Assembly: GCA_035450185.1 (NCBI GenBank)
Contig: DAOTMG010000003.1
Span: 65,562 to 129,561 of the forward strand
DNA from: Syntrophales bacterium
Lineage (GTDB): Bacteria > Desulfobacterota > Syntrophia > Syntrophales > UBA2192
Direction: 5' to 3'
Length of the DNA stretch: 64,000 bases
Position 1 is the stretch's first letter; each line of letters opens with the position of its first letter. Position numbers and translations under genes: made by a program. The notes beneath the pieces are model-generated. The model did not search any database. It saw nothing but the letters and a program-made list of their open reading frames with translations, and had not been told where the DNA came from. Positions 10,785 through 52,529 of the stretch are shown in pieces.

Positions 10785-10856
10785 CCGGTCAGGGGATCGT
10801 TACCGGCCCGGCGGACCGTATTTGTTCGAACCCGGTGACGGATTTCTTTAGGGTGC

Positions 10857-11357
10857 ATGGAAGAAGAAATAAAACTCGAGAGGGACTTCCGGGAGAGGAG
10901 TCGCTCACACATCGAGCATCGGGATCGTGAGGGAGAAAGGCCCAACGAGAAGAGCCTTCATCGAGGGGTCGGCGAACCCGTCCGTTACGGCGTCCCTGGC
11001 GGAATCAAAAAGTTCTACAGGGTGGAGCCCGAAGGGGAGCCCGCGGCGTCTTTCGACCGCATCGTCGCCGCTCCGGCGGGCTGAATGATGGGCGCACTGG
11101 CCATGGTGATGGCCGAAAAAAAGGTCGCGACACCGGAGGATCGCTATCGGGCGGGCATGGAAGGGGACATCGAAGCCGTCAACAACGTCCTCAAGATCAC
11201 AGGGATCCGGATGAAACGTCACCTCAGGGTGTCCCGGGACAAGGTTGCCGACGCGCGGAAGCCTTTCTCAATCTGCATCCGGCACTGCACGGCGGCGCAG
11301 AGCGTCATGAACTCCATCGAGATCAAGGACGAGCTCGTGATCGAGGAAAAGGCCTGA
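10857..11357 (+). CDS. OsmC/Ohr-family peroxiredoxin-like protein with in-frame TGA (candidate selenocysteine at 11082-11084)
   Basis: ORFs 10857..11084 and 11085..11357 share a frame and are separated only by TGA. OsmC-like similarity spans the junction: AAPAG-U-MMGALAMV aligns with E. coli OsmC AAHAA-C-FSMALSL, and the second Cys IRHCTAAQSV with AGCPVSQVL. A hairpin lies 17 nt downstream of the UGA. Confidence 0.65.
11099..11114 (+). promoter_or_regulatory. Candidate bacterial SECIS stem-loop
   Basis: GGCCAT-GGTG-ATGGCC perfect 6-bp stem with a G-rich apical loop 23-26 nt after the UGA. Confidence 0.4.
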
Positions 11358-11393
11358 GAGGACCCGGAAAAGGGGATGGGGATTTGAGAAGAG

Positions 11394-11416
11394 CGGGGCG
11401 GGCCCTGCCCTTTTTT
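11394..11416 (+). terminator. Intrinsic terminator after the OsmC-like gene
   Basis: GC-rich hairpin gggcgggccctgccc followed by TTTTTT. Confidence 0.5.
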
Positions 11417-11498
11417 ATTCATCCAGTTGCTTGAAACAAAAAATTTCTCAGGCATGCCTGTCTTTGTGGTATATTTTTCAAAAAGGGAGAACGTCCGC

Positions 11499-11711
11499 AT
11501 GCACAGGTACCTGCAGGTCTTCCTGATTCTCGGGGCGGCGGCCGTCATCGCCTACCTCTGGGGGTCCATTCCGCCTGAATCCCTGCGCGAGGGCTTGAGC
11601 GGGATCACCTCGGATGCACAATTCGCCCTCACGGTGAGACTGACCGGTTTTGTCGTCCTTCTGACGGTCGCCCTCTATTTCGCCGTCAGGAATATCCGGA
11701 AGGGCGGATGA
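11499..11711 (+). CDS. Small membrane protein (70 aa), unknown function
   Basis: MHRYLQVFLILGAAAVIAYLW.. and ..LTGFVVLLTVALYFAV give two predicted TM helices. GGGAGA SD 8 nt upstream of ATG 11499. Confidence 0.45.
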   Translation: MHRYLQVFLILGAAAVIAYLWGSIPPESLREGLSGITSDAQFALTVRLTGFVVLLTVALYFAVRNIRKGG

Positions 11712-11732: not shown

Positions 11733-12746
11733 GTGCTGAAGGAAGCCCTTCTGTACGATACGCTTGAAGAAAACCGGGTCTCCTGCCGTCTCTGCAGTCA
11801 CCGATGCCGGATCAGTGACGGGAAATTCGGAGTCTGCAGCGTCCGGGAAAACAGGGGCGGCACGCTCTACACCCATGTCTACGGTCGACTGATCGCGCAG
11901 AACCTGGACCCCATTGAGAAAAAACCCCTCTACCATTTCCTGCCGGGTTCCACGTCCTACTCCATCGCGACCATGGGGTGCAATTTCCGCTGTGACTTCT
12001 GCCAGAACTGGCAGATCTCCCAGGTCGCGGAGGCCGATCCCCTCGGTGTGCGGGGCCGGGATGTAAAACCCGAGGAGGTCGTCCGGCAGGCGAAGGCCGC
12101 CGGCTCGAAGAGCATTTCCTACACCTACACGGAGCCCACCATCTATTTCGAGTTCGCGTACGACTGCGCGAGGATCGCGAAGGCGGAGGGTCTCTACAAT
12201 GTTTTCGTCACCAACGGCTACATGACGCAAGAAATGCTCGGGATGATCCGTCCTTTTCTCGATGCCGCCAACGTGGACCTGAAATCCTTCCGCAATGATT
12301 TCTACAAACGGCTGTGCAAGGCCCGCCTTCAGCCCGTGCTGGACAATATCAAAACGATGAATGAGATGGGGGTCTGGATCGAGGTCACGACTCTCGTCGT
12401 CCCCGGACAGAACGACTCCGAGGCGGAACTGAAGGACATCGCGGCCTACCTCGCCTCCGTTGATGTCGGCATCCCATGGCACATCAGCCGGTTTCATCCG
12501 CAGTACAGGATGAACCATCTGGAGTCCACCCCCATGAAGATCCTCAACCGTGCCTACGAGATCGGAAGGGAGGCAGGCCTTCGCTACGTATACCTGGGCA
12601 ACGTCGCCGGGAAGCTGAACCACACTTACTGCTACCGCTGCGGCAATCTTCTCATCGAACGGGCCGGTTTCTCAGTGAGGAGGTATGAGGCGGAAGGCGG
12701 AAAATGCCCGAGGTGCGGGACGGTCCAGGCGGGGGTGGGACTATAG
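11733..12746 (+). CDS. AmmeMemoRadiSam-system-type radical SAM enzyme (PFL-activase-like)
   Basis: N-terminal CRLCSHRC..GVC Cys cluster, GCNFRCDFCQNW (CX3CX2C), C-terminal CYRCG..CPRCG. GTG start. No AMMECR1 or Memo partner in the window. Confidence 0.75.
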   Translation: MLKEALLYDTLEENRVSCRLCSHRCRISDGKFGVCSVRENRGGTLYTHVYGRLIAQNLDPIEKKPLYHFLPGSTSYSIATMGCNFRCDFCQNWQISQVAEADPLGVRGRDVKPEEVVRQAKAAGSKSISYTYTEPTIYFEFAYDCARIAKAEGLYNVFVTNGYMTQEMLGMIRPFLDAANVDLKSFRNDFYKRLCKARLQPVLDNIKTMNEMGVWIEVTTLVVPGQNDSEAELKDIAAYLASVDVGIPWHISRFHPQYRMNHLESTPMKILNRAYEIGREAGLRYVYLGNVAGKLNHTYCYRCGNLLIERAGFSVRRYEAEGGKCPRCGTVQAGVGL

Positions 12747-12794: not shown

Positions 12795-12855
12795 AGAAGA
12801 TCAGAAGTTAAGAAGTTCAGAAGTTGAGAAGTTGAGAAGCAGAGAAGCAGAGAGA
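12795..12855. repeat. Tandem 8-nt repeats (NAGAAGTT)x~7
   Basis: aagaagat cagaagtt aagaagtt cagaagtt gagaagtt gagaagca gagaagca; located between convergent gene ends. Confidence 0.8.
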
Positions 12856-12895: not shown

Positions 12896-13600
12896 TTATC
12901 CAAGGTCTTTCATGGCCGTCTTGAAGATCCGGAGGGCCTCTTCTTCGCTCACATCGGTCCAGCGCTCGTAGGCGTCCGCGACGGCGAAACTCCAGCCGCC
13001 CCGGACGTTGGCGCAATACAGGCGATCCACTTCAGCGGCCACGCGCCGGACGGCGCCTGCGCTTCCCGTCGGGACGGCGACGATGATCTCCCCCGTCCCG
13101 CTTTTCTTCAAAGCTTCCACCCCCACGAGCAGGGTGAACCCTGAGGCGAGGCCGTCATCGACCAGGATCACCCGCTCCCGGATGAGGGCCGGGTAGGACG
13201 GCTCGCCGCGGAATTTCTCGACACGGCGCTCCACCTTCCCGGTCGTGGCGGCTTTGCCCGCTTCGATCTCTTTTCCCGAAAGGCCGAGCCGGGACAGCAG
13301 ATCGCGATTCAGCCGGACCGTGCCGTCGAAGGCCACGGCGCCGTAGCCCGCTTCGGTGTTCCAGGGCAGGGTGATCTTGCTGACCACGGCCACGTCGAGC
13401 GGAAGGGAGAGTCTGCGGGCCAGGGAAGCGGCGACGGGAATTCCGCCTGCGGGTATCGCCATCACCAGTGTCCGGGACGCCCGGTAATCTTCGAGCATGC
13501 CGGCGAGGATCTCGCCGGCATGAGGCCGGTCGCGAAAGACATGGAGACGATCACGAAGCCCCGGAAGCTCGGTCACGTTTCCGGTCGTCCTGTTTTCCAT
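12896..13600 (-). CDS. Phosphoribosyltransferase-family protein
   Basis: VILVDDGLASGFT PRPP-binding motif; 234 aa, typical of the stand-alone predicted-PRTase family. Confidence 0.75.
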   Translation of the reverse strand: MENRTTGNVTELPGLRDRLHVFRDRPHAGEILAGMLEDYRASRTLVMAIPAGGIPVAASLARRLSLPLDVAVVSKITLPWNTEAGYGAVAFDGTVRLNRDLLSRLGLSGKEIEAGKAATTGKVERRVEKFRGEPSYPALIRERVILVDDGLASGFTLLVGVEALKKSGTGEIIVAVPTGSAGAVRRVAAEVDRLYCANVRGGWSFAVADAYERWTDVSEEEALRIFKTAMKDLG

Positions 13601-30712: not shown

Positions 30713-31757
30713 ATCGGACCTTCCCCTTTTTGATCCTTTTGCTCATTCCGAGCCTTTCATCGGCTTTTCTGAGAAGCGAGGACGCGTCGCTCACGTTCCG
30801 GTCCCTGTTCGTCGCCACACCGCAGCTGAGCGAAAGCGTCACGTGGGTCTCTCCGCGTCGCATGGGGTTGGTGAGGAAAAAGGTCTGGATGCGGTCGGAG
30901 AAGCGAAAGGCGTTTTCGCCTTCCGTGTGGGGGAGGATGACGACGAACTCGTCCCCGGCGAACCTCGCCACGATGTCGCTCTCGCGGCTCATGACCCGGA
31001 GGTGCACGGCCACGTATTTGAGGGCCTCGTCGCCGAAGTCGCGGCCATGGAGGTCGTTGAGTTCCTTGAAGTGATCCAGGTCCAGGAAGACCACCGAGAG
31101 CGGCGTGCCGTAGCGGGCGGCCCGGCTGAACTCCCGCCTCAGGGCCTCCTCGAGGACCCGGCGGTTGAGAAGCCCCGTGAGGGTGTCCTGGAAGGCGAGC
31201 ATGCGAAGTTTCTCCTGTGCCATGACGTTGGAGAGGCAGATGGACACCTTCACGGCGAGTTGCTCCAGGAGGGTCGTCTCCATCCCCGGGGCGTAGCGCT
31301 GGTCCGACGAGTCAGCCAGGTTGAGGCTCCCGATGACCTCCCGGTCGAGGGTGAGAGGGACGATGGCGAGGGAACGGATTTTCTTTCGTCCCTGCTCGGG
31401 AAGAATCGGCTCATAGTCCTTGAGCTGATCGTTGATGAGGACGGGTGAGCGCCGGCTGTCCGTCAGGCGGAAGAGGGTCTCCTTCGCGATGGTTCGCAGG
31501 TTCCTCCGGACGGTCTGGGGGGCTTCGATGGTCTCGAGGAGCTTGAGCGGTTCGCTTCCCTCGATCAGGGCGATCCAGACGTGGGGGATGTCGAATTTTT
31601 CCCGTATTTCCCTGAGAAGCCTTTGCAGGAAATCCTTGAAGTGACGGATGGAGAGGATGCTGGTTTCGATCTCGAAAAACTTCCGGGCGATCTCCTCGTT
31701 GTCGCGAATGACCTGGAGAAGCTCGCTCACGTCTTGCAGGGGCTGTCTTCCGGTCAT
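30711..31757 (-). CDS. Diguanylate cyclase (N-terminal DUF484/GAF-like sensor + GGDEF)
   Basis: LTGLLNRR.., FLDLDHFKELND, RFAGDEFVV (GGDEF variant AGDEF) in the C-terminal half. Confidence 0.8.
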   Translation of the reverse strand: MTGRQPLQDVSELLQVIRDNEEIARKFFEIETSILSIRHFKDFLQRLLREIREKFDIPHVWIALIEGSEPLKLLETIEAPQTVRRNLRTIAKETLFRLTDSRRSPVLINDQLKDYEPILPEQGRKKIRSLAIVPLTLDREVIGSLNLADSSDQRYAPGMETTLLEQLAVKVSICLSNVMAQEKLRMLAFQDTLTGLLNRRVLEEALRREFSRAARYGTPLSVVFLDLDHFKELNDLHGRDFGDEALKYVAVHLRVMSRESDIVARFAGDEFVVILPHTEGENAFRFSDRIQTFFLTNPMRRGETHVTLSLSCGVATNRDRNVSDASSLLRKADERLGMSKRIKKGKVR

Positions 31758-32707
31758 GGGGTCTTCTTCAGTGCCTCGATGAGTTTCGGTACGACGTCGT
31801 ACAGATTGCCGACGATGCCGAGGTCCGCGGCACCGAAGATGGGGGCGTGCTCGTCCTTGTTGACGGCGGCGATCACCTTGGAACGGCTGATCCCCGTGAC
31901 ATGCTGGATCTGGCCGGAGACGCCGAGACCGATGTAGAGGTCCGGCTTGACGGAGATGCCGGAGAGGCCGATGCAGAGTTCCTCCGGAAGCCAGTGCAAC
32001 TCCTCCGTGACCGGCCGTGTGCCGGCGACCTCTCCTCCGAGAACTTCCGCCAGTTCCCGTACGAGGGAAAGATCCTCCTTCTTTTCAACACCCCTTCCCG
32101 CGCAGACGACGACAGGAGATTCCGTGATATCCTTTATCTCGCGGGTCCTGGCCCTTTTCTCGAGGATCTTCACGGCTGAATGCGCCGGGGCGGCAAGTTC
32201 CCGGACCTTTCCCTCCCTTCCCGCAAACTCCGGCGCCGGTTCGAAGGTCCGGGGCGGGATGGTAGCCATGACGGGGCGGGTGGAGCAGGAGACCCTCTGC
32301 AGGGCTGCGCCGCCGTATGCGAGACGGTCCATCAGAACGGATTTTGACTCTTCGTCAAAGGTGATCGCCGTGCAGCTGCTGCAGAGGCCCGTCTTGAGCC
32401 GAACCGCGAGTCGGGCGGCAAGTTCCTTCCCCCGGTAGGTCGCCGGGATCAGGATCAGATCGGGCTCCGTCCTGCCGGCCTCTTCGGCGATGAGCGGAAT
32501 GAAGGCATCCGGTGACTGTCCTTCCGGAAGCGCCGGCAGGAGAATCGCTTCGTCCGCGCCGTGAGCGATGAAGACCTTTGCCCCTTCAGGCGTGTCGCCG
32601 ATCATGACCGAAAGGGACACTCCCATCTTGTCCGCGAGTTGCCTGCCGATGCCCAAAAGCTCGAGGGCCTGGTCTCTCCATTCCGCAAGAATCCAGATTC
32701 CTGCCAT
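31754..32707 (-). CDS. etfA: Electron transfer flavoprotein alpha subunit
   Basis: 317 aa; C-terminal FAD-binding pattern PELYIGLGVSGQIQH..G......IAAVNKD..API; overlaps the GGDEF start by 4 nt. Confidence 0.9.
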   Translation of the reverse strand: MAGIWILAEWRDQALELLGIGRQLADKMGVSLSVMIGDTPEGAKVFIAHGADEAILLPALPEGQSPDAFIPLIAEEAGRTEPDLILIPATYRGKELAARLAVRLKTGLCSSCTAITFDEESKSVLMDRLAYGGAALQRVSCSTRPVMATIPPRTFEPAPEFAGREGKVRELAAPAHSAVKILEKRARTREIKDITESPVVVCAGRGVEKKEDLSLVRELAEVLGGEVAGTRPVTEELHWLPEELCIGLSGISVKPDLYIGLGVSGQIQHVTGISRSKVIAAVNKDEHAPIFGAADLGIVGNLYDVVPKLIEALKKTP

Positions 32708-32717
32708 GGTATTTCCT

Positions 32718-33488
32718 CTATCGTATGACGCCCTTTCTCACCAGGGCGTCGATGAATTTTTTGATCTCCCCGGGATCCGTCCCGAATTTCTCGCAGCTTC
32801 TCTCCATCCGCGCCGCCTTCATGTCCACTGTCTTGAGCCGGGCTTCCGGCATGGAGGGGAGATCCCTCTTCGTGATGGTCGTCACGGGCTTCTTGCCCGC
32901 CATCAGCGTGTCCTTCACGCCGGGGATCCGCGGCGTGTTGATGTCGGGGAGCACCGTCACCAGGGCCGGCGTCGGGGCCGATACGACTTCCGTGCCTTCC
33001 TCGACCTTTCGCTCCGCGACGATCTTTCCATCCCCCAGGGTGATCTTCTGAACGAAGGCAACGCAGGGGATGCCGAGGAGTTCCGCGAGACGCGGTCCGA
33101 CCTGCTGGGCATAGAGGTCGCTCGAACCTTCGCCGCAGGTGATGAGATCGTATTGGGGGATGCGGGACTGTATGACCTCCGCGAGAATGGCGGCCGTCCG
33201 GGCGGGTTCGAGGTCGCGGAAGTCCGGGTCCGCTATGAAGAAGGCCCGGTCCATCCCGCGGGACAGACCGTCCTTGACCCCTTTCGCGGCCTCCGTCGTC
33301 CCGACGGTGATGCCGATCACGCTCCCGCCGCCCCCTGCATCTCGCAGGCGGGCGGCCTCCTCGATGGCATTGCGGTCATATTCCCCGATCTTGTAGTCCA
33401 CGGCCGATAAGTCGAGCTTCCCGTCGGACCCCCGGCGGATGTAGGCTTCGTCGATGACCCACTTGAAACAGGCAATAAGGGTGGGCAT
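32718..33488 (-). CDS. etfB: Electron transfer flavoprotein beta subunit
   Basis: MPTLIACFKWVIDEAY.., DLITCGEGSSD.. GGAGG SD before ATG 33488; the ORF-track start at 33527 lies in the repeat region. Confidence 0.85.
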   Translation of the reverse strand: MPTLIACFKWVIDEAYIRRGSDGKLDLSAVDYKIGEYDRNAIEEAARLRDAGGGGSVIGITVGTTEAAKGVKDGLSRGMDRAFFIADPDFRDLEPARTAAILAEVIQSRIPQYDLITCGEGSSDLYAQQVGPRLAELLGIPCVAFVQKITLGDGKIVAERKVEEGTEVVSAPTPALVTVLPDINTPRIPGVKDTLMAGKKPVTTITKRDLPSMPEARLKTVDMKAARMERSCEKFGTDPGEIKKFIDALVRKGVIR

Positions 33489-33502
33489 ATATGCCTCCGG
33501 TC

Positions 33503-33579
33503 TCAAGGCTAAAGGCTCAAGGTGCAAGGCGAAGATGGCATTGCCATAAGCCCTTAGCCTTACGCCTTATGCCTTATGT
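33503..33579. repeat. Heptamer (AAGGCNN / NNGCCTT) arrays in inverted orientation around a perfect ATGGCA-T-TGCCAT palindrome
   Basis: tcaaggct aaaggct caaggtg caaggcg aag ATGGCATTGCCAT aagccct tagcctt acgcctt atgcctt atg; acd-etfB intercistronic. Confidence 0.75.
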
Positions 33580-33586
33580 CTTTCTT

Positions 33587-34726
33587 TTATCTCAGCACCG
33601 TACCCGAGATAACCATCCGCTGGGCTTCCGAGGACCCCTCGTAGATCTCCAGGATCTTGGCGTCGCGCATGATGCGCTCCACCTTCGCGCCCTTGATGTA
33701 GCCGTACCCGCCGTGAATCTGGACGGCCTTGATCGTGTGGTGCATGGCTTTTTCCGACGCGTAGAGCTTGGCCATGGAGGCTTCCTTGCTGAAGGGCTTT
33801 CCCTGGTCCTTCAGCCATGCGGCATGGTAGGTGAGCCAGCGCGCCGCCTGGAGGTCCGTCGCCATGTCGGCGATCATCCAGGCGATGGCCTGGTGACGGG
33901 CGATGGGAGTACCCATCTGGACCCTTTCCTTGGAGTACCTGATGGACTCATCGAGGGCCGCCTGGAGGATGCCCACGCCCTGCGCGGCGATCCCCACGCG
34001 CCCGTGGTCGAAGCCGAGCATGGCGTTGCCGAGGCCCGCCCCTTCCGGCCCCAGGAGATTTGCCTTGGGGACGCGGCAGTCCTTGAATACGACCTCCGAG
34101 GTCTGCGAGGAGCGGAGCCCCATTTTGTGAAAGTGCTCGCCGGGTTTCAGGCCGGCGGTCCCTTTCGGGATGATGAAGGAACTCATCCCCTTGCGCCCCG
34201 CCGCCTTGTCGGTCCAGCAGAAGACGAGGTAGGTGTCGGCCAGCGGCCCGTTGGAGATAAAGGTCTTCGTGCCGTTGATCACGTAGAAGTCGCCGTCCTT
34301 GGCGGCCGTCGTCGTCGCGGCCATGACGTCGGTGCCGGCCCCCGGTTCGGTGAGGACGAAGGCCCCCATGTGCTGTCCCGTGGCGAGAGGGACGAGGTAC
34401 TTCTTCTTCTGATCCTCGTTTCCGAGGAGGTTGATGAGCATGCAGGCGATTCCGACGTGGATCGAAACGGTGAACCCCGTCGAGGAGCAGGAGCGTGACA
34501 GCTCCTCCACGACGATGGCGTTGGTCAGGTAGTCCGACCCGGAGCCGCCCCATTGCGTCGGGATGGGGATGCCCATCCAACCTCCCTCTGCGAGCTTTTT
34601 GAAGAGGTCCGCCGGGTGGATTTCTTTCTCGTCGATCTCGGCGGCGATGGGATCGACATGTTTCACACAGAATTCACGGATGTTCTTTCGGATCAGTTCC
34701 TGTTCCTCCGTCAGTTTGAAGTCCAT
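33587..34726 (-). CDS. Acyl-CoA dehydrogenase (short/medium-chain, butyryl-CoA dehydrogenase-like)
   Basis: 379 aa; LTEPGAGTD, ..KTFISNG.., YEGSSEAQR family motifs; adjacent to etfBA. Confidence 0.9.
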   Translation of the reverse strand: MDFKLTEEQELIRKNIREFCVKHVDPIAAEIDEKEIHPADLFKKLAEGGWMGIPIPTQWGGSGSDYLTNAIVVEELSRSCSSTGFTVSIHVGIACMLINLLGNEDQKKKYLVPLATGQHMGAFVLTEPGAGTDVMAATTTAAKDGDFYVINGTKTFISNGPLADTYLVFCWTDKAAGRKGMSSFIIPKGTAGLKPGEHFHKMGLRSSQTSEVVFKDCRVPKANLLGPEGAGLGNAMLGFDHGRVGIAAQGVGILQAALDESIRYSKERVQMGTPIARHQAIAWMIADMATDLQAARWLTYHAAWLKDQGKPFSKEASMAKLYASEKAMHHTIKAVQIHGGYGYIKGAKVERIMRDAKILEIYEGSSEAQRMVISGTVLR

Positions 34727-34769
34727 GGTCCCCTCCTTCCGGGTTGCAGGCCGGTGCCTGCTCCCATTA

Positions 34770-34797
34770 TGAATTTTAAATTTTGAATTTTGAATTC
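34770..34797. repeat. AT-rich 8-nt-periodic repeats (TGAATTTT family)
   Basis: tgaatttt aaatttt gaatttt gaattcc; upstream (gene sense) of the acd leader box. Confidence 0.7.
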
Positions 34798-34931
34798 CTT
34801 ATTTAAGCTGTTTCACTTCACTCGCCTCGGCCTCCCCGTTCCGTTCAGCCTCTTCCTTCTTTCCCGTCAATATTCCAGCAGGGCACTTTTTCAATCCCTG
34901 TACCCGATACCCTTGACCCTGTCCCCCGGTT

Positions 34932-35204
34932 TCATCCGAAGCGGAACTGGACGCCGAAGCCGCCCTCGGGGTAGTTCCAGTCGAGAACCGCCGTCCCGCA
35001 GGCGATCCGGCAGGTCCCGCACTCGAGGCACCCATCTACGTTGATGGAGACCTCTCCCTTCTCGTTTTCGCTGTAGCAGCCGGCAGGGCAGATTTTCACG
35101 GCGGGCTTGAGCAAAGGATCTTTTTCACACCCGGCCTTTATTACGATGTGTGGCTCCCTGCCGGGTTTGAAGACATCGAGCCCGAGCTTTGCCTTTAAAT
35201 CCAC
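34932..35204 (-). CDS. fixX: Ferredoxin-like protein FixX
   Basis: 90 aa; CPAGCY..CLECGTCRIAC ferredoxin-like Cys pattern; follows fixC. Confidence 0.85.
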   Translation of the reverse strand: MDLKAKLGLDVFKPGREPHIVIKAGCEKDPLLKPAVKICPAGCYSENEKGEVSINVDGCLECGTCRIACGTAVLDWNYPEGGFGVQFRFG

Positions 35205-35260
35205 GCTGTCACCTGTGATTTATTCCTGTTGTGTTGAAACCCTGAACCGCCCGCCCCGGT

Positions 35261-35279
35261 CCTCTCCCTTCGGGAGAGG
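35261..35279 (-). other. Stable intercistronic hairpin between fixC and fixX
   Basis: CCTCTCCC-TTC-GGGAGAGG perfect 8-bp stem. Confidence 0.4.
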
Positions 35280-35307
35280 GAGTGATCGAAAGTGTCCGGA
35301 CAAACGG

Positions 35308-36594
35308 TCATATTCTTGCTATACCTCTCAGGTCCTTGAAGATCGCCCATATCTCGCCGAGCGGGAGGTGCTTTCTAACGGTCGGAAAGATCCTCTCCTT
35401 GGGGCCGGCAGGTATGCTGTAAAGGTCCTTCATGATCTCCCCGATGAGATCGGGGTAGTGGTTGAAAAATCGCGGGTTTGAAAGCACCGCCGGCGACTCA
35501 CGGAAACGGATGAAGTCTTTGAGCACGAAACTCTCTTCGAGCATTTTCCCGTAGATGGAAAGGGACGTCGCGTCGAAAATCCCTGCCTCCTTCGCTTTCA
35601 GGACGGCTTTCCCCGCGAAGTGGCCCGAGGCCATGGCGTATTCCATGCCTCGCACGGTGAATCCCATGTTGAGGGCGAATCCCGCTGCGTCGCCCGCGAC
35701 GAGGATGCCGTCGCCGAAAAGCGGGACCAAGCCCCCGTACCCCCCTTCGGGGATCATGTGGGCGCCGTATTCCAGGGTCCTGCCGCCTTTTACCAGAGGG
35801 GCGATCTCCGGCCGCGACTTGAAGGCGTCGAGAAGGGCGGGAAGCTCGGCGGCGCCTCCTTTCCGGACGAAGTCCTGAATGCCCATGACGAGCCCGAGAC
35901 TCAGGCTGTCTTTGTTTGTGTAGAGAAAACCGCCCCCGAAGAGCCCTCCGGTGACCTCGCCGACGTAGAGTCGCGCCGTCCCCTCGTTTCCATCGAGGTT
36001 GAAGCGGTCGTTGATACGGGACGGGTCGAGGGCGATGACTTCCTTGATTGCGACGGCGTAGTGTTCGGCCCTCCCGGGCGGGTGGAGCCCGGCTTTTTCG
36101 GCAAGAAGCGAGACCACGCCGTCGCAGGCCACGACCACGTCGGCGCGGAGATCATCGCCGCCGGCGATGACGCCCGCGATTTTGCCGTTTTCCCTGATCG
36201 CGTCATCGACGCGGGTCTTGGGCAGAATCATGACGCCCTTTTCCTCGAGGCGCTCGGATATCCACCGGTCGACTCTCGACCGAAGGACGCTGTAACTCTG
36301 GTGAGGAGCGGCCCGAAGTTCGTCGCCGGAGTAATCGAGCGTGAGCGAACGCTCTCCGGCCATGACCGTGACCCCTTCATGGACAATGAAGCGTTCGAGC
36401 GGCACCTCATCCCACAGACCGGGAAAGAGTTCCCGCACGGGATTCACATAAAGTCGCCCGCCCGAGAGGTTTTTCGCACCGGGGTAGTCCCCCCGCTCCA
36501 GGACGAGGACCTCGAGCCCTTTTCCGGCGAGGGTCCAGGCGCATCCCAGGCCGGCGAGCCCCGCCCCCACGATGATCGCGTCGAATTTCTCCAT
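35308..36594 (-). CDS. fixC: FAD-dependent electron-transfer-flavoprotein:quinone oxidoreductase FixC
   Basis: MEKFDAIIVGAGLAGLGCA dinucleotide-binding motif; 428 aa; paired with fixX. Confidence 0.85.
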   Translation of the reverse strand: MEKFDAIIVGAGLAGLGCAWTLAGKGLEVLVLERGDYPGAKNLSGGRLYVNPVRELFPGLWDEVPLERFIVHEGVTVMAGERSLTLDYSGDELRAAPHQSYSVLRSRVDRWISERLEEKGVMILPKTRVDDAIRENGKIAGVIAGGDDLRADVVVACDGVVSLLAEKAGLHPPGRAEHYAVAIKEVIALDPSRINDRFNLDGNEGTARLYVGEVTGGLFGGGFLYTNKDSLSLGLVMGIQDFVRKGGAAELPALLDAFKSRPEIAPLVKGGRTLEYGAHMIPEGGYGGLVPLFGDGILVAGDAAGFALNMGFTVRGMEYAMASGHFAGKAVLKAKEAGIFDATSLSIYGKMLEESFVLKDFIRFRESPAVLSNPRFFNHYPDLIGEIMKDLYSIPAGPKERIFPTVRKHLPLGEIWAIFKDLRGIARI

Positions 36595-51725: not shown

Positions 51726-52529
51726 TTATCGACCGCGGAAATCGGGTTTTCGCCTCTCCATGAAAGCCCGGACGGCCTCCTTCAAATCTTCCGAGGCGAA
51801 AAGAACCATGTTCTTGTGCATGGCCAGGGACATGCCGTCCTCCACCGTGGCGTGGCGGCTCATGTTCAGGACCTCCTTCGTGGCCTGGACAGCAAGAGGC
51901 GCATTCGCGGCAATCTGCAGTGCAAGGGCCCGTGCCCCCTCCATTAGGGCCTCCCGGTCGGGGTAGACGGCGCTCACAAGCCCCATCTTCTCGGCTTCCT
52001 TTGCGCTGTAGAAGCGGGCCGTGTAGGCCATCTCCCGGGTGAAGCCCTGTCCGATGACGTGCGGCAGGCGCTGGAGCACGCCCATGTCCGCCACGAGTCC
52101 CACGGCCGCCTCCCGCAGGGAGAACGAGGCGTCCCGGGTGCACAGGCGGATGTCGCAGGCCGAGACGATGTCCAGCCCCCCGCCGATGCAGGCCCCGTGA
52201 ACGGCGGCGATCACGGGCTTTCTGCAGGCCTCGATGAAATCGCAGCTGTCGAAGATGGACCGGAGCTTGTCGGGGAATTCTAGGCTCGCCTTCGGCGAAC
52301 CGTCGATTCCCGTCGAGGTAAAAGCCTTGAGGTCAAGCCCGGCGCAGAAGGCCTTGGCCCGGCTGCACAGGATGGCAACCCTCACATCGTCGCGAGCACC
52401 CGCCTCGCGAAATACGGCCGCGATCTCGGCCGAGAAAGGGACGTCGAGGGCGTTGAGGCTTTCTGTTTTCGACAGCGTCACCGTGGCGACATTATCTTTG
52501 ACCTGCAAGTCAATGAATCGGTAGGACAT
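51726..52529 (-). CDS. Enoyl-CoA hydratase/isomerase (crotonase) family
   Basis: ..LNAL......E........D..VRVAIL.....AFCAGLDLK.. and GACIGGGLD oxyanion-hole motifs. Confidence 0.85.
   Translation of the reverse strand: MSYRFIDLQVKDNVATVTLSKTESLNALDVPFSAEIAAVFREAGARDDVRVAILCSRAKAFCAGLDLKAFTSTGIDGSPKASLEFPDKLRSIFDSCDFIEACRKPVIAAVHGACIGGGLDIVSACDIRLCTRDASFSLREAAVGLVADMGVLQRLPHVIGQGFTREMAYTARFYSAKEAEKMGLVSAVYPDREALMEGARALALQIAANAPLAVQATKEVLNMSRHATVEDGMSLAMHKNMVLFASEDLKEAVRAFMERRKPDFRGR

Follow-up and report, generated by a model that had tools for sequence, protein, structure and literature searches.

The 64,000-nucleotide stretch of Syntrophales bacterium contig DAOTMG010000003.1 analyzed here (assembly GCA_035450185.1; hereafter the window) contains two open reading frames (ORFs), at positions 10857..11084 (75 amino acids, aa) and 11085..11357 (90 aa), that occupy a common frame and are separated solely by the TGA codon at 11082-11084, exactly as an original prediction made from these letters had described. 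Comparison with relatives shows that the two ORFs constitute a single gene from a widespread family of proteins with the OsmC/Ohr fold, in which the catalytic cysteine is predicted to be replaced by selenocysteine (Sec). Alignments identify the copy in the window as an orthologue that evolves fast and has been remodelled, with an N-terminus produced by a frameshift, and the codon at 11082..11084 is polymorphic within the population, being read as either TGA or TGC.

Conservation of the TGA junction among relatives

Relatives were sought in one genome per species, and at least 371 species-level genomes were found to carry one. The first protein search returned a lone full-length match, P0001, a protein of 166 aa that is 96% identical to the predicted product and bears cysteine at the column of the TGA (..AVPAG-C-LKGTLAMV..). 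The remaining 74 clusters are proteins of approximately 91 aa, every one of which begins with MMGTLA. Examination of the DNA upstream of several of these 91-aa "genes" revealed a TGA preceded by a conserved ORF of 64-73 aa, in frame and with no spacer. Over 81 distinct loci, the codon at this column is TGA in 75 and TGC or TGT in the other six (L001, L013, L017, L018, L024 and L032), and full-length proteins with cysteine at this position are represented by P0001, P0090-95, P0097, P0102 and P0106. The cysteine-containing orthologues expected at the TGA column thus exist, and homology is not confined to the 90-aa ORF, which had been named as an outcome that would undermine the prediction, since the upstream halves are kept in frame in relatives.

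Among the 75 genomes with TGA, the spacing of the junction shows zero variation, and both flanks are conserved as protein (64 aa upstream and about 90 aa downstream). The upstream consensus is MGEIVHTSRIKIVREKGPTRRAMIEGFxEPVYYGVHGGIKKFYKVEPEKEHAATLDHIVAATAG, and that of the family reads MGEIVHTSRIKIVREKGPTRRAMIEGFNEPVYYGVHGGIKKFYKVEPEKEHAATLDHIVAATAG-U-MMGTLATVLAGKKIPTPEDRYWADVEGDIENVNGVLKITQIRVKYHLKV....AFSSYLxxCPAAQSVIGCIEIKDELVIEE. The canonical members are proteins of approximately 155 aa with the motif U-MMGT, whereas the window sequence at the Sec codon is ...IVAAPAG-U-MMGALAMVMAEK, with the motif U-M-M-G-A. Hosts comprise Syntrophales/Smithellaceae, other Thermodesulfobacteriota and Nitrospirota (Thermodesulfovibrionales), together with single metagenome-assembled genomes (MAGs) labelled Chloroflexota and Hyphomicrobiales.

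A second protein search, in which a cysteine-containing member served as the query, yielded 1517 clusters at 90% identity. These comprise about 10 true full-length cysteine forms, about 10 full-length proteins with tryptophan at the column, and otherwise halves of 88-94 aa that are named "OsmC family protein" or "organic hydroperoxide reductase OsmC/OhrA". The public tryptophan forms (P0096, P0098-P0101, P0103-P0105, P0123 and P0153) are most simply explained by metagenome gene callers having read the TGA under genetic code 4, an artefact by which selenoprotein genes come to look like normal ORFs. The family is thus large and systematically mis-annotated as two fragments: almost throughout, its members are deposited either as such a pair, a "hypothetical protein" followed by an "OsmC family protein" of 91 aa, or with tryptophan where Sec is expected.

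A SECIS-type hairpin downstream of the UGA

The perfect hairpin that had been noted 17 nt after the U of the UGA is present, its core GGCCAU-GGUG-AUGGCC lying at 11099-11114 and being extended by a U.G pair to 11098-11115. In the 75 Sec loci the corresponding stem is CUGGCCR-(loop)-UGGCCGG, with 7 bp formed between columns 16-22 and 29-35 counted from the U of the UGA. This stem is paired in 97.5% of cells, and G24 of the loop is nearly invariant (at least 90% conserved). The hairpin is the minimum free energy (MFE) structure in most Sec members, with values of -10.7 to -12.3 kcal/mol, and it is destroyed in the Smithella clade of cysteine forms (CUGUCC or UUUUCC; -5 kcal/mol, z > 0).

In place of a classical covariation analysis, constraint on the RNA was assessed from third-position entropy at amino-acid-conserved four- and six-fold degenerate codons across the whole gene. 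Codons +4, +5, +6 and +10 after the UGA, which fall in the arms of the stem, have entropies of 0.93, 0.10, 0.28 and 0.61 bits, respectively, against 1.3-2.0 bits elsewhere in the gene, where the lone other low value belongs to the serine codon +73 (0.8 bits, T/C only). This freezing of synonymous sites at both arms indicates that the hairpin, which is conserved in the family, is under constraint at the RNA level of the kind expected for a selenocysteine insertion sequence (SECIS).

In the SECIS element of Escherichia coli fdhF, a stem-loop lies directly downstream of the UGA, with the loop sequence GGU at approximately positions 22-24 from the U, and bSECISearch uses a UGA-to-loop range of 16-37 nt. 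The family hairpin likewise resides inside the ORF, its loop places GGU at 24-26 (GGUG at 24-27 in the window), and its UGA-to-loop distance falls within that range. It differs from the fdhF element in having a shorter stem (6-7 bp) that starts 15 nt after the UGA and no evident bulged U, and its binding by SelB is hypothetical.

Assignment to the OsmC/Ohr fold

The OsmC fold consists of strands beta1-3, a long helix bearing a cysteine, a beta-hairpin, helices bearing a second cysteine, and a C-terminal strand. When U is read as C, the joined window protein scores 27.4 bits against the Pfam OsmC model PF02566, compared with 18 bits for the downstream half alone. The canonical orthologues reach 36-40 bits, above the gathering threshold of 27.5, whereas P0001 (25.2 bits) falls under it. 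An AlphaFold2 (AF2) model of P0097, a canonical cysteine member, has OsmC topology (predicted local distance difference test score, pLDDT, of 87; predicted template modelling score, pTM, of 0.82), and all of its 50 best matches in the PDB are OsmC/Ohr structures or OsmC-like proteins from structural genomics. Foldseek comparison with OsmC/Ohr structures gives a probability of 1.0 and template modelling (TM) scores of about 0.5-0.6. Profile and model together bear out the proposal that the product is OsmC-like.

Profile alignments to PDB sequences (E values of 0.012-0.3) place the Sec column on the peroxidatic cysteine of the Ohr protein 6d9n (AGYSA-C-FDSAL) and on Cys59 of E. coli OsmC (IGAAHAA-C-FSMALS), confirming the placement given in the original prediction. 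The same alignments position the conserved C-PAAQSV segment on the resolving cysteine (C-PVSQ of OsmC and C-PYS of Ohr), such that U76 and C144 of the window protein correspond to Cys59 and Cys125 of OsmC and to both cysteines of Ohr. The family has its fold and both cysteine columns in common with the two-cysteine organic hydroperoxide reductases E. coli OsmC (1nye/1qwi) and Ohr (e.g. 6d9n, 1n2f), and the spacing between the two catalytic residues is similar (68 versus 66). It differs from them in sequence, with identities of only 10-18% and weak profile E values, and in its use of Sec for Cys. In Ohr/OsmC the activating arginine is carried by N-terminal strands. Canonical family members have an invariant arginine in each of the motifs HTSR and PTRR, and in the window both of these fall within an out-of-frame relic; the window copy also lacks the N-terminal strands that build the dimer in OsmC/Ohr.

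At one canonical Sec locus in a Nitrospirota MAG (L002, 4135-10276), the gene is found beside a Crp-family regulator, MsrB (SelR), MsrA (PMSR) and a pyridine-nucleotide disulfide oxidoreductase, an oxidative-stress neighbourhood that is consistent with a peroxidase role.

Relation to known OsmC-like selenoproteins

OsmC-like selenoproteins were described in 2005 by Zhang, Fomenko and Gladyshev from three sequences assigned to COG1765 and sharing the motif UxxT (PMC1088965), so that the earlier reports invoked in the original prediction are indeed in the literature, and they are listed in reviews from 2022 and 2026 (PMC9312934, PMC13188914). These Sargasso Sea/Global Ocean Sampling proteins (COG1765/YhfA type) likewise belong to the PF02566 superfamily, carry a UGA-encoded Sec at the redox-active cysteine, possess a SECIS hairpin whose small apical loop contains a G, and have cysteine-containing homologues. 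The present proteins do not match UxxT but instead exhibit UxxxT (U-M-M-G-T in the family, U-M-M-G-A in the window). They also differ from the Sargasso type in having an invariant N-terminus of their own (MGEIVHTSRIKIVREKGPTRRA) and three conserved histidines, and in residing in anaerobic Syntrophales, Thermodesulfobacteriota and Nitrospirota rather than marine plankton.

The NCBIfam model NF041052, "OsmC-related (seleno)protein", has a cut-off of 95 bits, and canonical P0097 falls below it at 16.1 bits; neither P0001 nor the window protein is matched by this model, and other NCBIfam matches are sub-threshold only. The U-MMGT clade is also not among the 19 selenoproteins of Syntrophus aciditrophicus listed in 2006 (PMC1794560). 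By these sequence comparisons, the clade is a new subfamily of a known kind of OsmC-like selenoprotein, lying outside NCBI's curated model.

A remodelled N-terminus and relaxed constraint in the window copy

The window gene lies in the order TPR (tetratricopeptide repeat)-PfkB-gene-radical SAM (S-adenosylmethionine)-phosphoribosyltransferase, which recurs at three canonical Sec loci (L015, L016 and L021) where the adjacent proteins are 75-85% identical to those of the window, and it is thus the positional orthologue of the genes at these loci. Alignment of its DNA to these three loci reveals that the ancestral ATG has become GGG at 10891-10893 and that 1 nt has been deleted near 10968, a deletion shared by every independent assembly of the species (L001, L086-L090). 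As a result, the ancestral N-terminal coding sequence (..VAHTSSIGIVREKGPTRRAFIEG) persists in the +1 frame, where tblastn with the family consensus detects a match at 10900-10980, and the ancestral frame offers no ATG, GTG or TTG between TAA 10870 and GTG 10927. Residues 1-37 of the present ORF have no homologue outside the species cluster in protein searches. In the AF2 model of P0001, residues 1-54 have pLDDT values below 50 and residues 66-166 retain the OsmC core, which suggests that the 37 new N-terminal residues are probably disordered. The proposal of one 166-aa Sec protein rather than two genes thus holds with respect to a single gene with a Sec column, but not with respect to the first 37 residues, which are not homologous to the family.

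The deletion sits in a GGGG run (10965-10968), at which a -1 slip would restore a near-canonical junction (IEG-V-GEPVRY). Programmed -1 frameshifting at this run was considered as the main means of rescue and rejected, there being no start before GTG 10927 and no good Shine-Dalgarno sequence for that GTG. An intact second paralogue was not found in the window, where tblastn of the consensus matched this locus alone.

Downstream of the deletion point, 14 of 57 near-invariant columns are changed. Besides the losses listed further below, the window protein lacks the proline of CPAAQSV and the tyrosine of YHL. Its identity to orthologues is 74-76%, versus 89-96% for canonical pairs at equal neighbour divergence, and branch omega (Nei-Gojobori) is approximately 0.37 for the window lineage versus 0.03-0.11 for L015 and L016. 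Yet the 125 codons that follow the deletion contain no stop and no further indel despite a branch dS of about 0.3. Constraint on this copy is thus strongly relaxed but not gone. A convincing selenoprotein assignment at the family level gives no guarantee that any one copy is intact, as is illustrated here by the absence of both the start codon and the N-terminus.

Sec and Cys alleles in one population

Two JGI contigs match the window without a difference between 8200 and 13600, and two Syntrophales MAGs at NCBI are nearly identical to it. Two allele classes of the gene product fall into the same cluster at 90% identity. The Sec allele, U-MMGALA, is deposited as proteins of 75 and 90 aa, was read in 22 contigs, and is represented in public calls of the window halves by HPC73337.1 and HPC73336.1, each a "hypothetical protein [Syntrophales bacterium]". 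The Cys allele, C-LKGTLA, encodes 166 aa and is commoner, with P0078 indexed in 69 blocks of the collection. The two differ by a linked block (TGA ATG ATG GGC GCA versus TGC CTG AAG GGC ACA) for which no intermediates were seen. Overall, the 501-nt gene contains 12 variable sites, eight of them nonsynonymous, whereas the neighbouring genes have about 21 over 4.4 kb, and the haplotypes are approximately 99.5% identical over 5.4 kb. Among no fewer than 46 contigs, the majority keep the ORF intact.

The outgroups L015, L016 and L021 read TGA ATG ATG GGN ACN, and both alleles are therefore derived, the Sec allele by a change of T to A and the Cys allele by replacement of U with C and of the two methionines that follow with L and K. 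G60A and R121C are found with both allele classes, which points to recombination or recurrent mutation. One possible explanation, which we offer tentatively, is that two old recombining alleles (Sec U-MMGA and Cys C-LKGT) have been maintained, reflecting either a replacement in progress or balancing selection, for example under fluctuating selenium. Gene conversion from a paralogue was considered as the source of the Cys patch GGCTGCCTGAAGGGCACACTGGCC and is unsupported, as no donor was found in the window or the loci compared.

In a neighbour-joining tree of the family, cysteine forms occur at no fewer than four separate places among Sec forms, which points to repeated Sec-to-Cys changes in which Sec is ancestral and Cys derived at several tips. 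Within a Smithella-type clade of cysteine forms (L013, L017, L018, L024, L032 and P0090-P0095) there is a single Sec member, L020, a placement that implies either more than one loss of Sec or its recovery at this point. Documented replacements of Sec by Cys in bacteria (FdhA, SelD) likewise have Sec as the ancestral state. The present case differs in being a polymorphism that segregates in one species-level population, in involving two linked amino-acid changes, and in affecting a family of the thiol-oxidoreductase type.

Evaluation of alternative explanations

Several observations weigh against a functional Sec codon in the window copy. Pairs of same-frame ORFs joined across a single TGA number 204 in the window, which has a GC content of 60%, such that a junction of this type is by itself at the level of chance. 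Scanning these pairs uncovered no second selenoprotein gene in the 64-kb window; as a route to such a gene the scan was uninformative, its pairs with high third-position GC content (GC3) proving to be ordinary neighbours (leuA/leuC, radical SAM/family 2 glycosyltransferase). Pfam scans of 40 ORFs and the gene calls of matching JGI and NCBI contigs (+/-10 kb) revealed no selA, selB or selD in the window, and ARAGORN found 0 tRNAs, and hence no tRNA-Sec, in it. The joined protein lies 0.1 bit under the PF02566 gathering threshold. Covariation in the hairpin is weak, the near-invariance of the stem leaving only two double changes. In the window sequence itself, the 45-57 nt after the UGA fold no better than shuffled sequences (z of -1.25 to -1.34; 17-24 of 200 as good), the MFE structure is a competing fold, and a G-to-A change at 11116 removes the C-G pair that closes the base of the stem in the family. 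No Rfam family matches the hairpin, either at gathering thresholds over the whole window or at E values up to 10 over 10800-11450, where the weak matches are chance ones on the terminator hairpin at 11393..11419. As for the protein, 22 of 72 near-invariant (>=95%) columns are changed, compared with 0.8 on average and 6 at most among 80 canonical members, and the losses include three histidines (of VHGG, EHAAT and LDHIV), the third cysteine (of GCI) and the whole conserved N-terminus. A frameshifted variant, P0081/P0082, also circulates on five contigs. The TGA and hairpin at this locus are accordingly significant only because comparison with relatives shows their conservation, and Sec decoding is inferred here from the conservation of UGA and hairpin across the family, the Sec allele of the window included, and from the literature on relatives that use Sec: 19 selenoproteins are listed for S. 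aciditrophicus (PMC1794560), and among bacteria the Deltaproteobacteria are the richest in such proteins (PMC9312934). On this evidence the source organism would insert Sec.

Some of these features could indicate that the window copy is a decaying gene, with the TGA an inherited Sec codon and the start loss, frameshift, active-site changes and TGA-to-TGC replacement all products of neutral drift. The loss of the ancestral ATG, the deletion, the altered invariant columns, the low identity and raised omega, the concentration of mostly nonsynonymous variable sites, the frameshifted variant and the predicted disorder of the N-terminal third would all fit such decay. An omega well under 1 would not, and neither would 125 codons without an internal stop or second indel, a new-frame ATG that opens a complete ORF intact in almost every contig of either allele, a Sec allele that keeps the TGA and the hairpin core, or the gene's possession of its own terminator; moreover, the four changes around the Sec/Cys codon are in tight linkage, lack intermediates and look non-neutral. 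Decay is therefore possible but in our estimate rather unlikely, and we favour, with some reserve, the view that the window copy is still a working selenoprotein gene.

Other explanations would deny a role for Sec altogether. If translation really ended at TGA 11082 and began anew at ATG 11085 (UGAAUG), the locus would comprise two translationally coupled small genes of 75 and 90 aa, as in the public calls and as the roughly 1500 database clusters of ~91-aa proteins beginning MMGTLA might imply, and in this degenerate copy termination followed by re-initiation could even be the main outcome. We judge this highly improbable given fused cysteine homologues at a minimum of four places in the tree, the fixed spacing of the junction in 75 genomes, and the fact that each half is part of one OsmC fold. 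The RNA-level constraint on the hairpin would be unexpected at a plain stop-start junction, and the upstream sequence is conserved as protein, with no need to invoke Shine-Dalgarno-like conservation as an explanation. It is more improbable still that the UGA specifies one of the standard amino acids, whether through recoding as tryptophan or glycine or through high-level near-cognate read-through. The ten or so full-length database members with tryptophan are best attributed to code-4 gene callers, the only natural substitute at the column, that of the catalytic cysteine, is cysteine, and the host lineages are known users of Sec (PMC1794560, PMC9312934). TGA also ends 13 of the 26 Pfam-supported genes in the window and is thus an ordinary stop there, so that a dedicated recoding signal would be needed.

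Under the favoured reading of a Sec-containing peroxidase-like protein, the UGA would be recoded by SelB and tRNA-Sec, guided by the hairpin in the coding region. The Sec selenol would then attack the hydroperoxide and be regenerated via the resolving cysteine, as in two-cysteine OsmC/Ohr peroxidases, on whose analogy the peroxidase chemistry of the family is proposed. In the window lineage, with the ancestral start lost and the frame shifted by the 1-nt deletion, the present ORF opens at an upstream ATG, and 37 unrelated residues take the place of the first two beta-strands and probably of the activating arginine in a protein that is presumably still made and useful.

Features of the locus and neighbouring genes

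The coordinates of the features discussed above are collected in Table 1.

Table 1. Features of the OsmC/Ohr-like locus in window coordinates
Feature	Position	Strand	Remarks
OsmC/Ohr-like gene with predicted Sec codon	10857..11357	+	166 codons including UGA; one gene
Lineage-specific N-terminal 37 codons (MEEEIKLERDFRERSRSHIEHRDREGERPNEKSLHRG)	10857..10967	+	Ancestral N-terminal DNA in shifted frame, with new ATG
Relic of ancestral N-terminus, +1 frame (G-RGVAHTSSIGIVREKGPTRRAFIEG)	10891..10968	+	tblastn, DNA alignment, ORF list
Site of 1-nt deletion joining two frames	10965..10970	+	GAG GG- GTC GGC versus canonical GAG GGY TTY GGY
Polymorphism hot spot around Sec/Cys codon	11035..11094	+	9 variable sites in 60 nt; L001 and L090 versus L086-L089
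In-frame UGA, putative Sec codon at peroxidatic-Cys column	11082..11084	+	TGA 75, TGC/TGT 6 among 81 loci
SECIS-like hairpin	11098..11115	+	Stem 11098-11104/11109-11115 (U.G, 4 G-C, 2 A-U), loop GGUG 11105-11108
Resolving-Cys codon TGC	11286..11288	+	C-TAAQSV here versus C-PAAQSV in family; profile and family alignments
Intrinsic-terminator-like hairpin and T-run	11393..11419	+	36 nt past stop codon

Between this terminator and the radical SAM gene at 11733-12746 lies a small conserved ORF (11427-11711, + strand; 70-94 aa depending on the gene caller) that has a predicted hydrophobic segment and no Pfam match. It occupies the same frame as the radical SAM gene, from which TGA 11709 divides it, and is probably an ordinary small membrane protein. 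Farther downstream, an intergenic segment at 12826-12841, flanked by the radical SAM gene and by the phosphoribosyltransferase gene at 12896-13600 (- strand), contains a deletion polymorphism of 8 bp (L001, L090) or 16 bp (L088) in a short direct repeat, GAGAAG(TT/CA). The window also encodes electron transfer flavoprotein (ETF) alpha/beta, acyl-coenzyme A (CoA) dehydrogenase, flavin adenine dinucleotide (FAD)-dependent oxidoreductase and enoyl-CoA hydratase (31754-36594 on the - strand, and 51726-52529), and at least five radical SAM genes are spread across it. This content is typical of a syntrophic degrader of fatty acids or aromatic compounds and fits the assignment to Syntrophales.

Implications for the family

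If this family were included, the numbers of selenoproteins attributed to Syntrophales, Thermodesulfobacteriota and Nitrospirota would be put right. Replacements of Sec by Cys in bacteria are said to be rare in a 2026 review (PMC13188914), whereas this family exhibits several of them, one of which appears as a live polymorphism in the species represented by the window. If this interpretation is correct, it would constitute a Sec-to-Cys replacement in a protein of the thiol-peroxidase type, with a peak of diversity at the catalytic codon, in a clade that curated models and annotation have missed. With such a polymorphism, the question of what favours Sec rather than Cys could be addressed directly.

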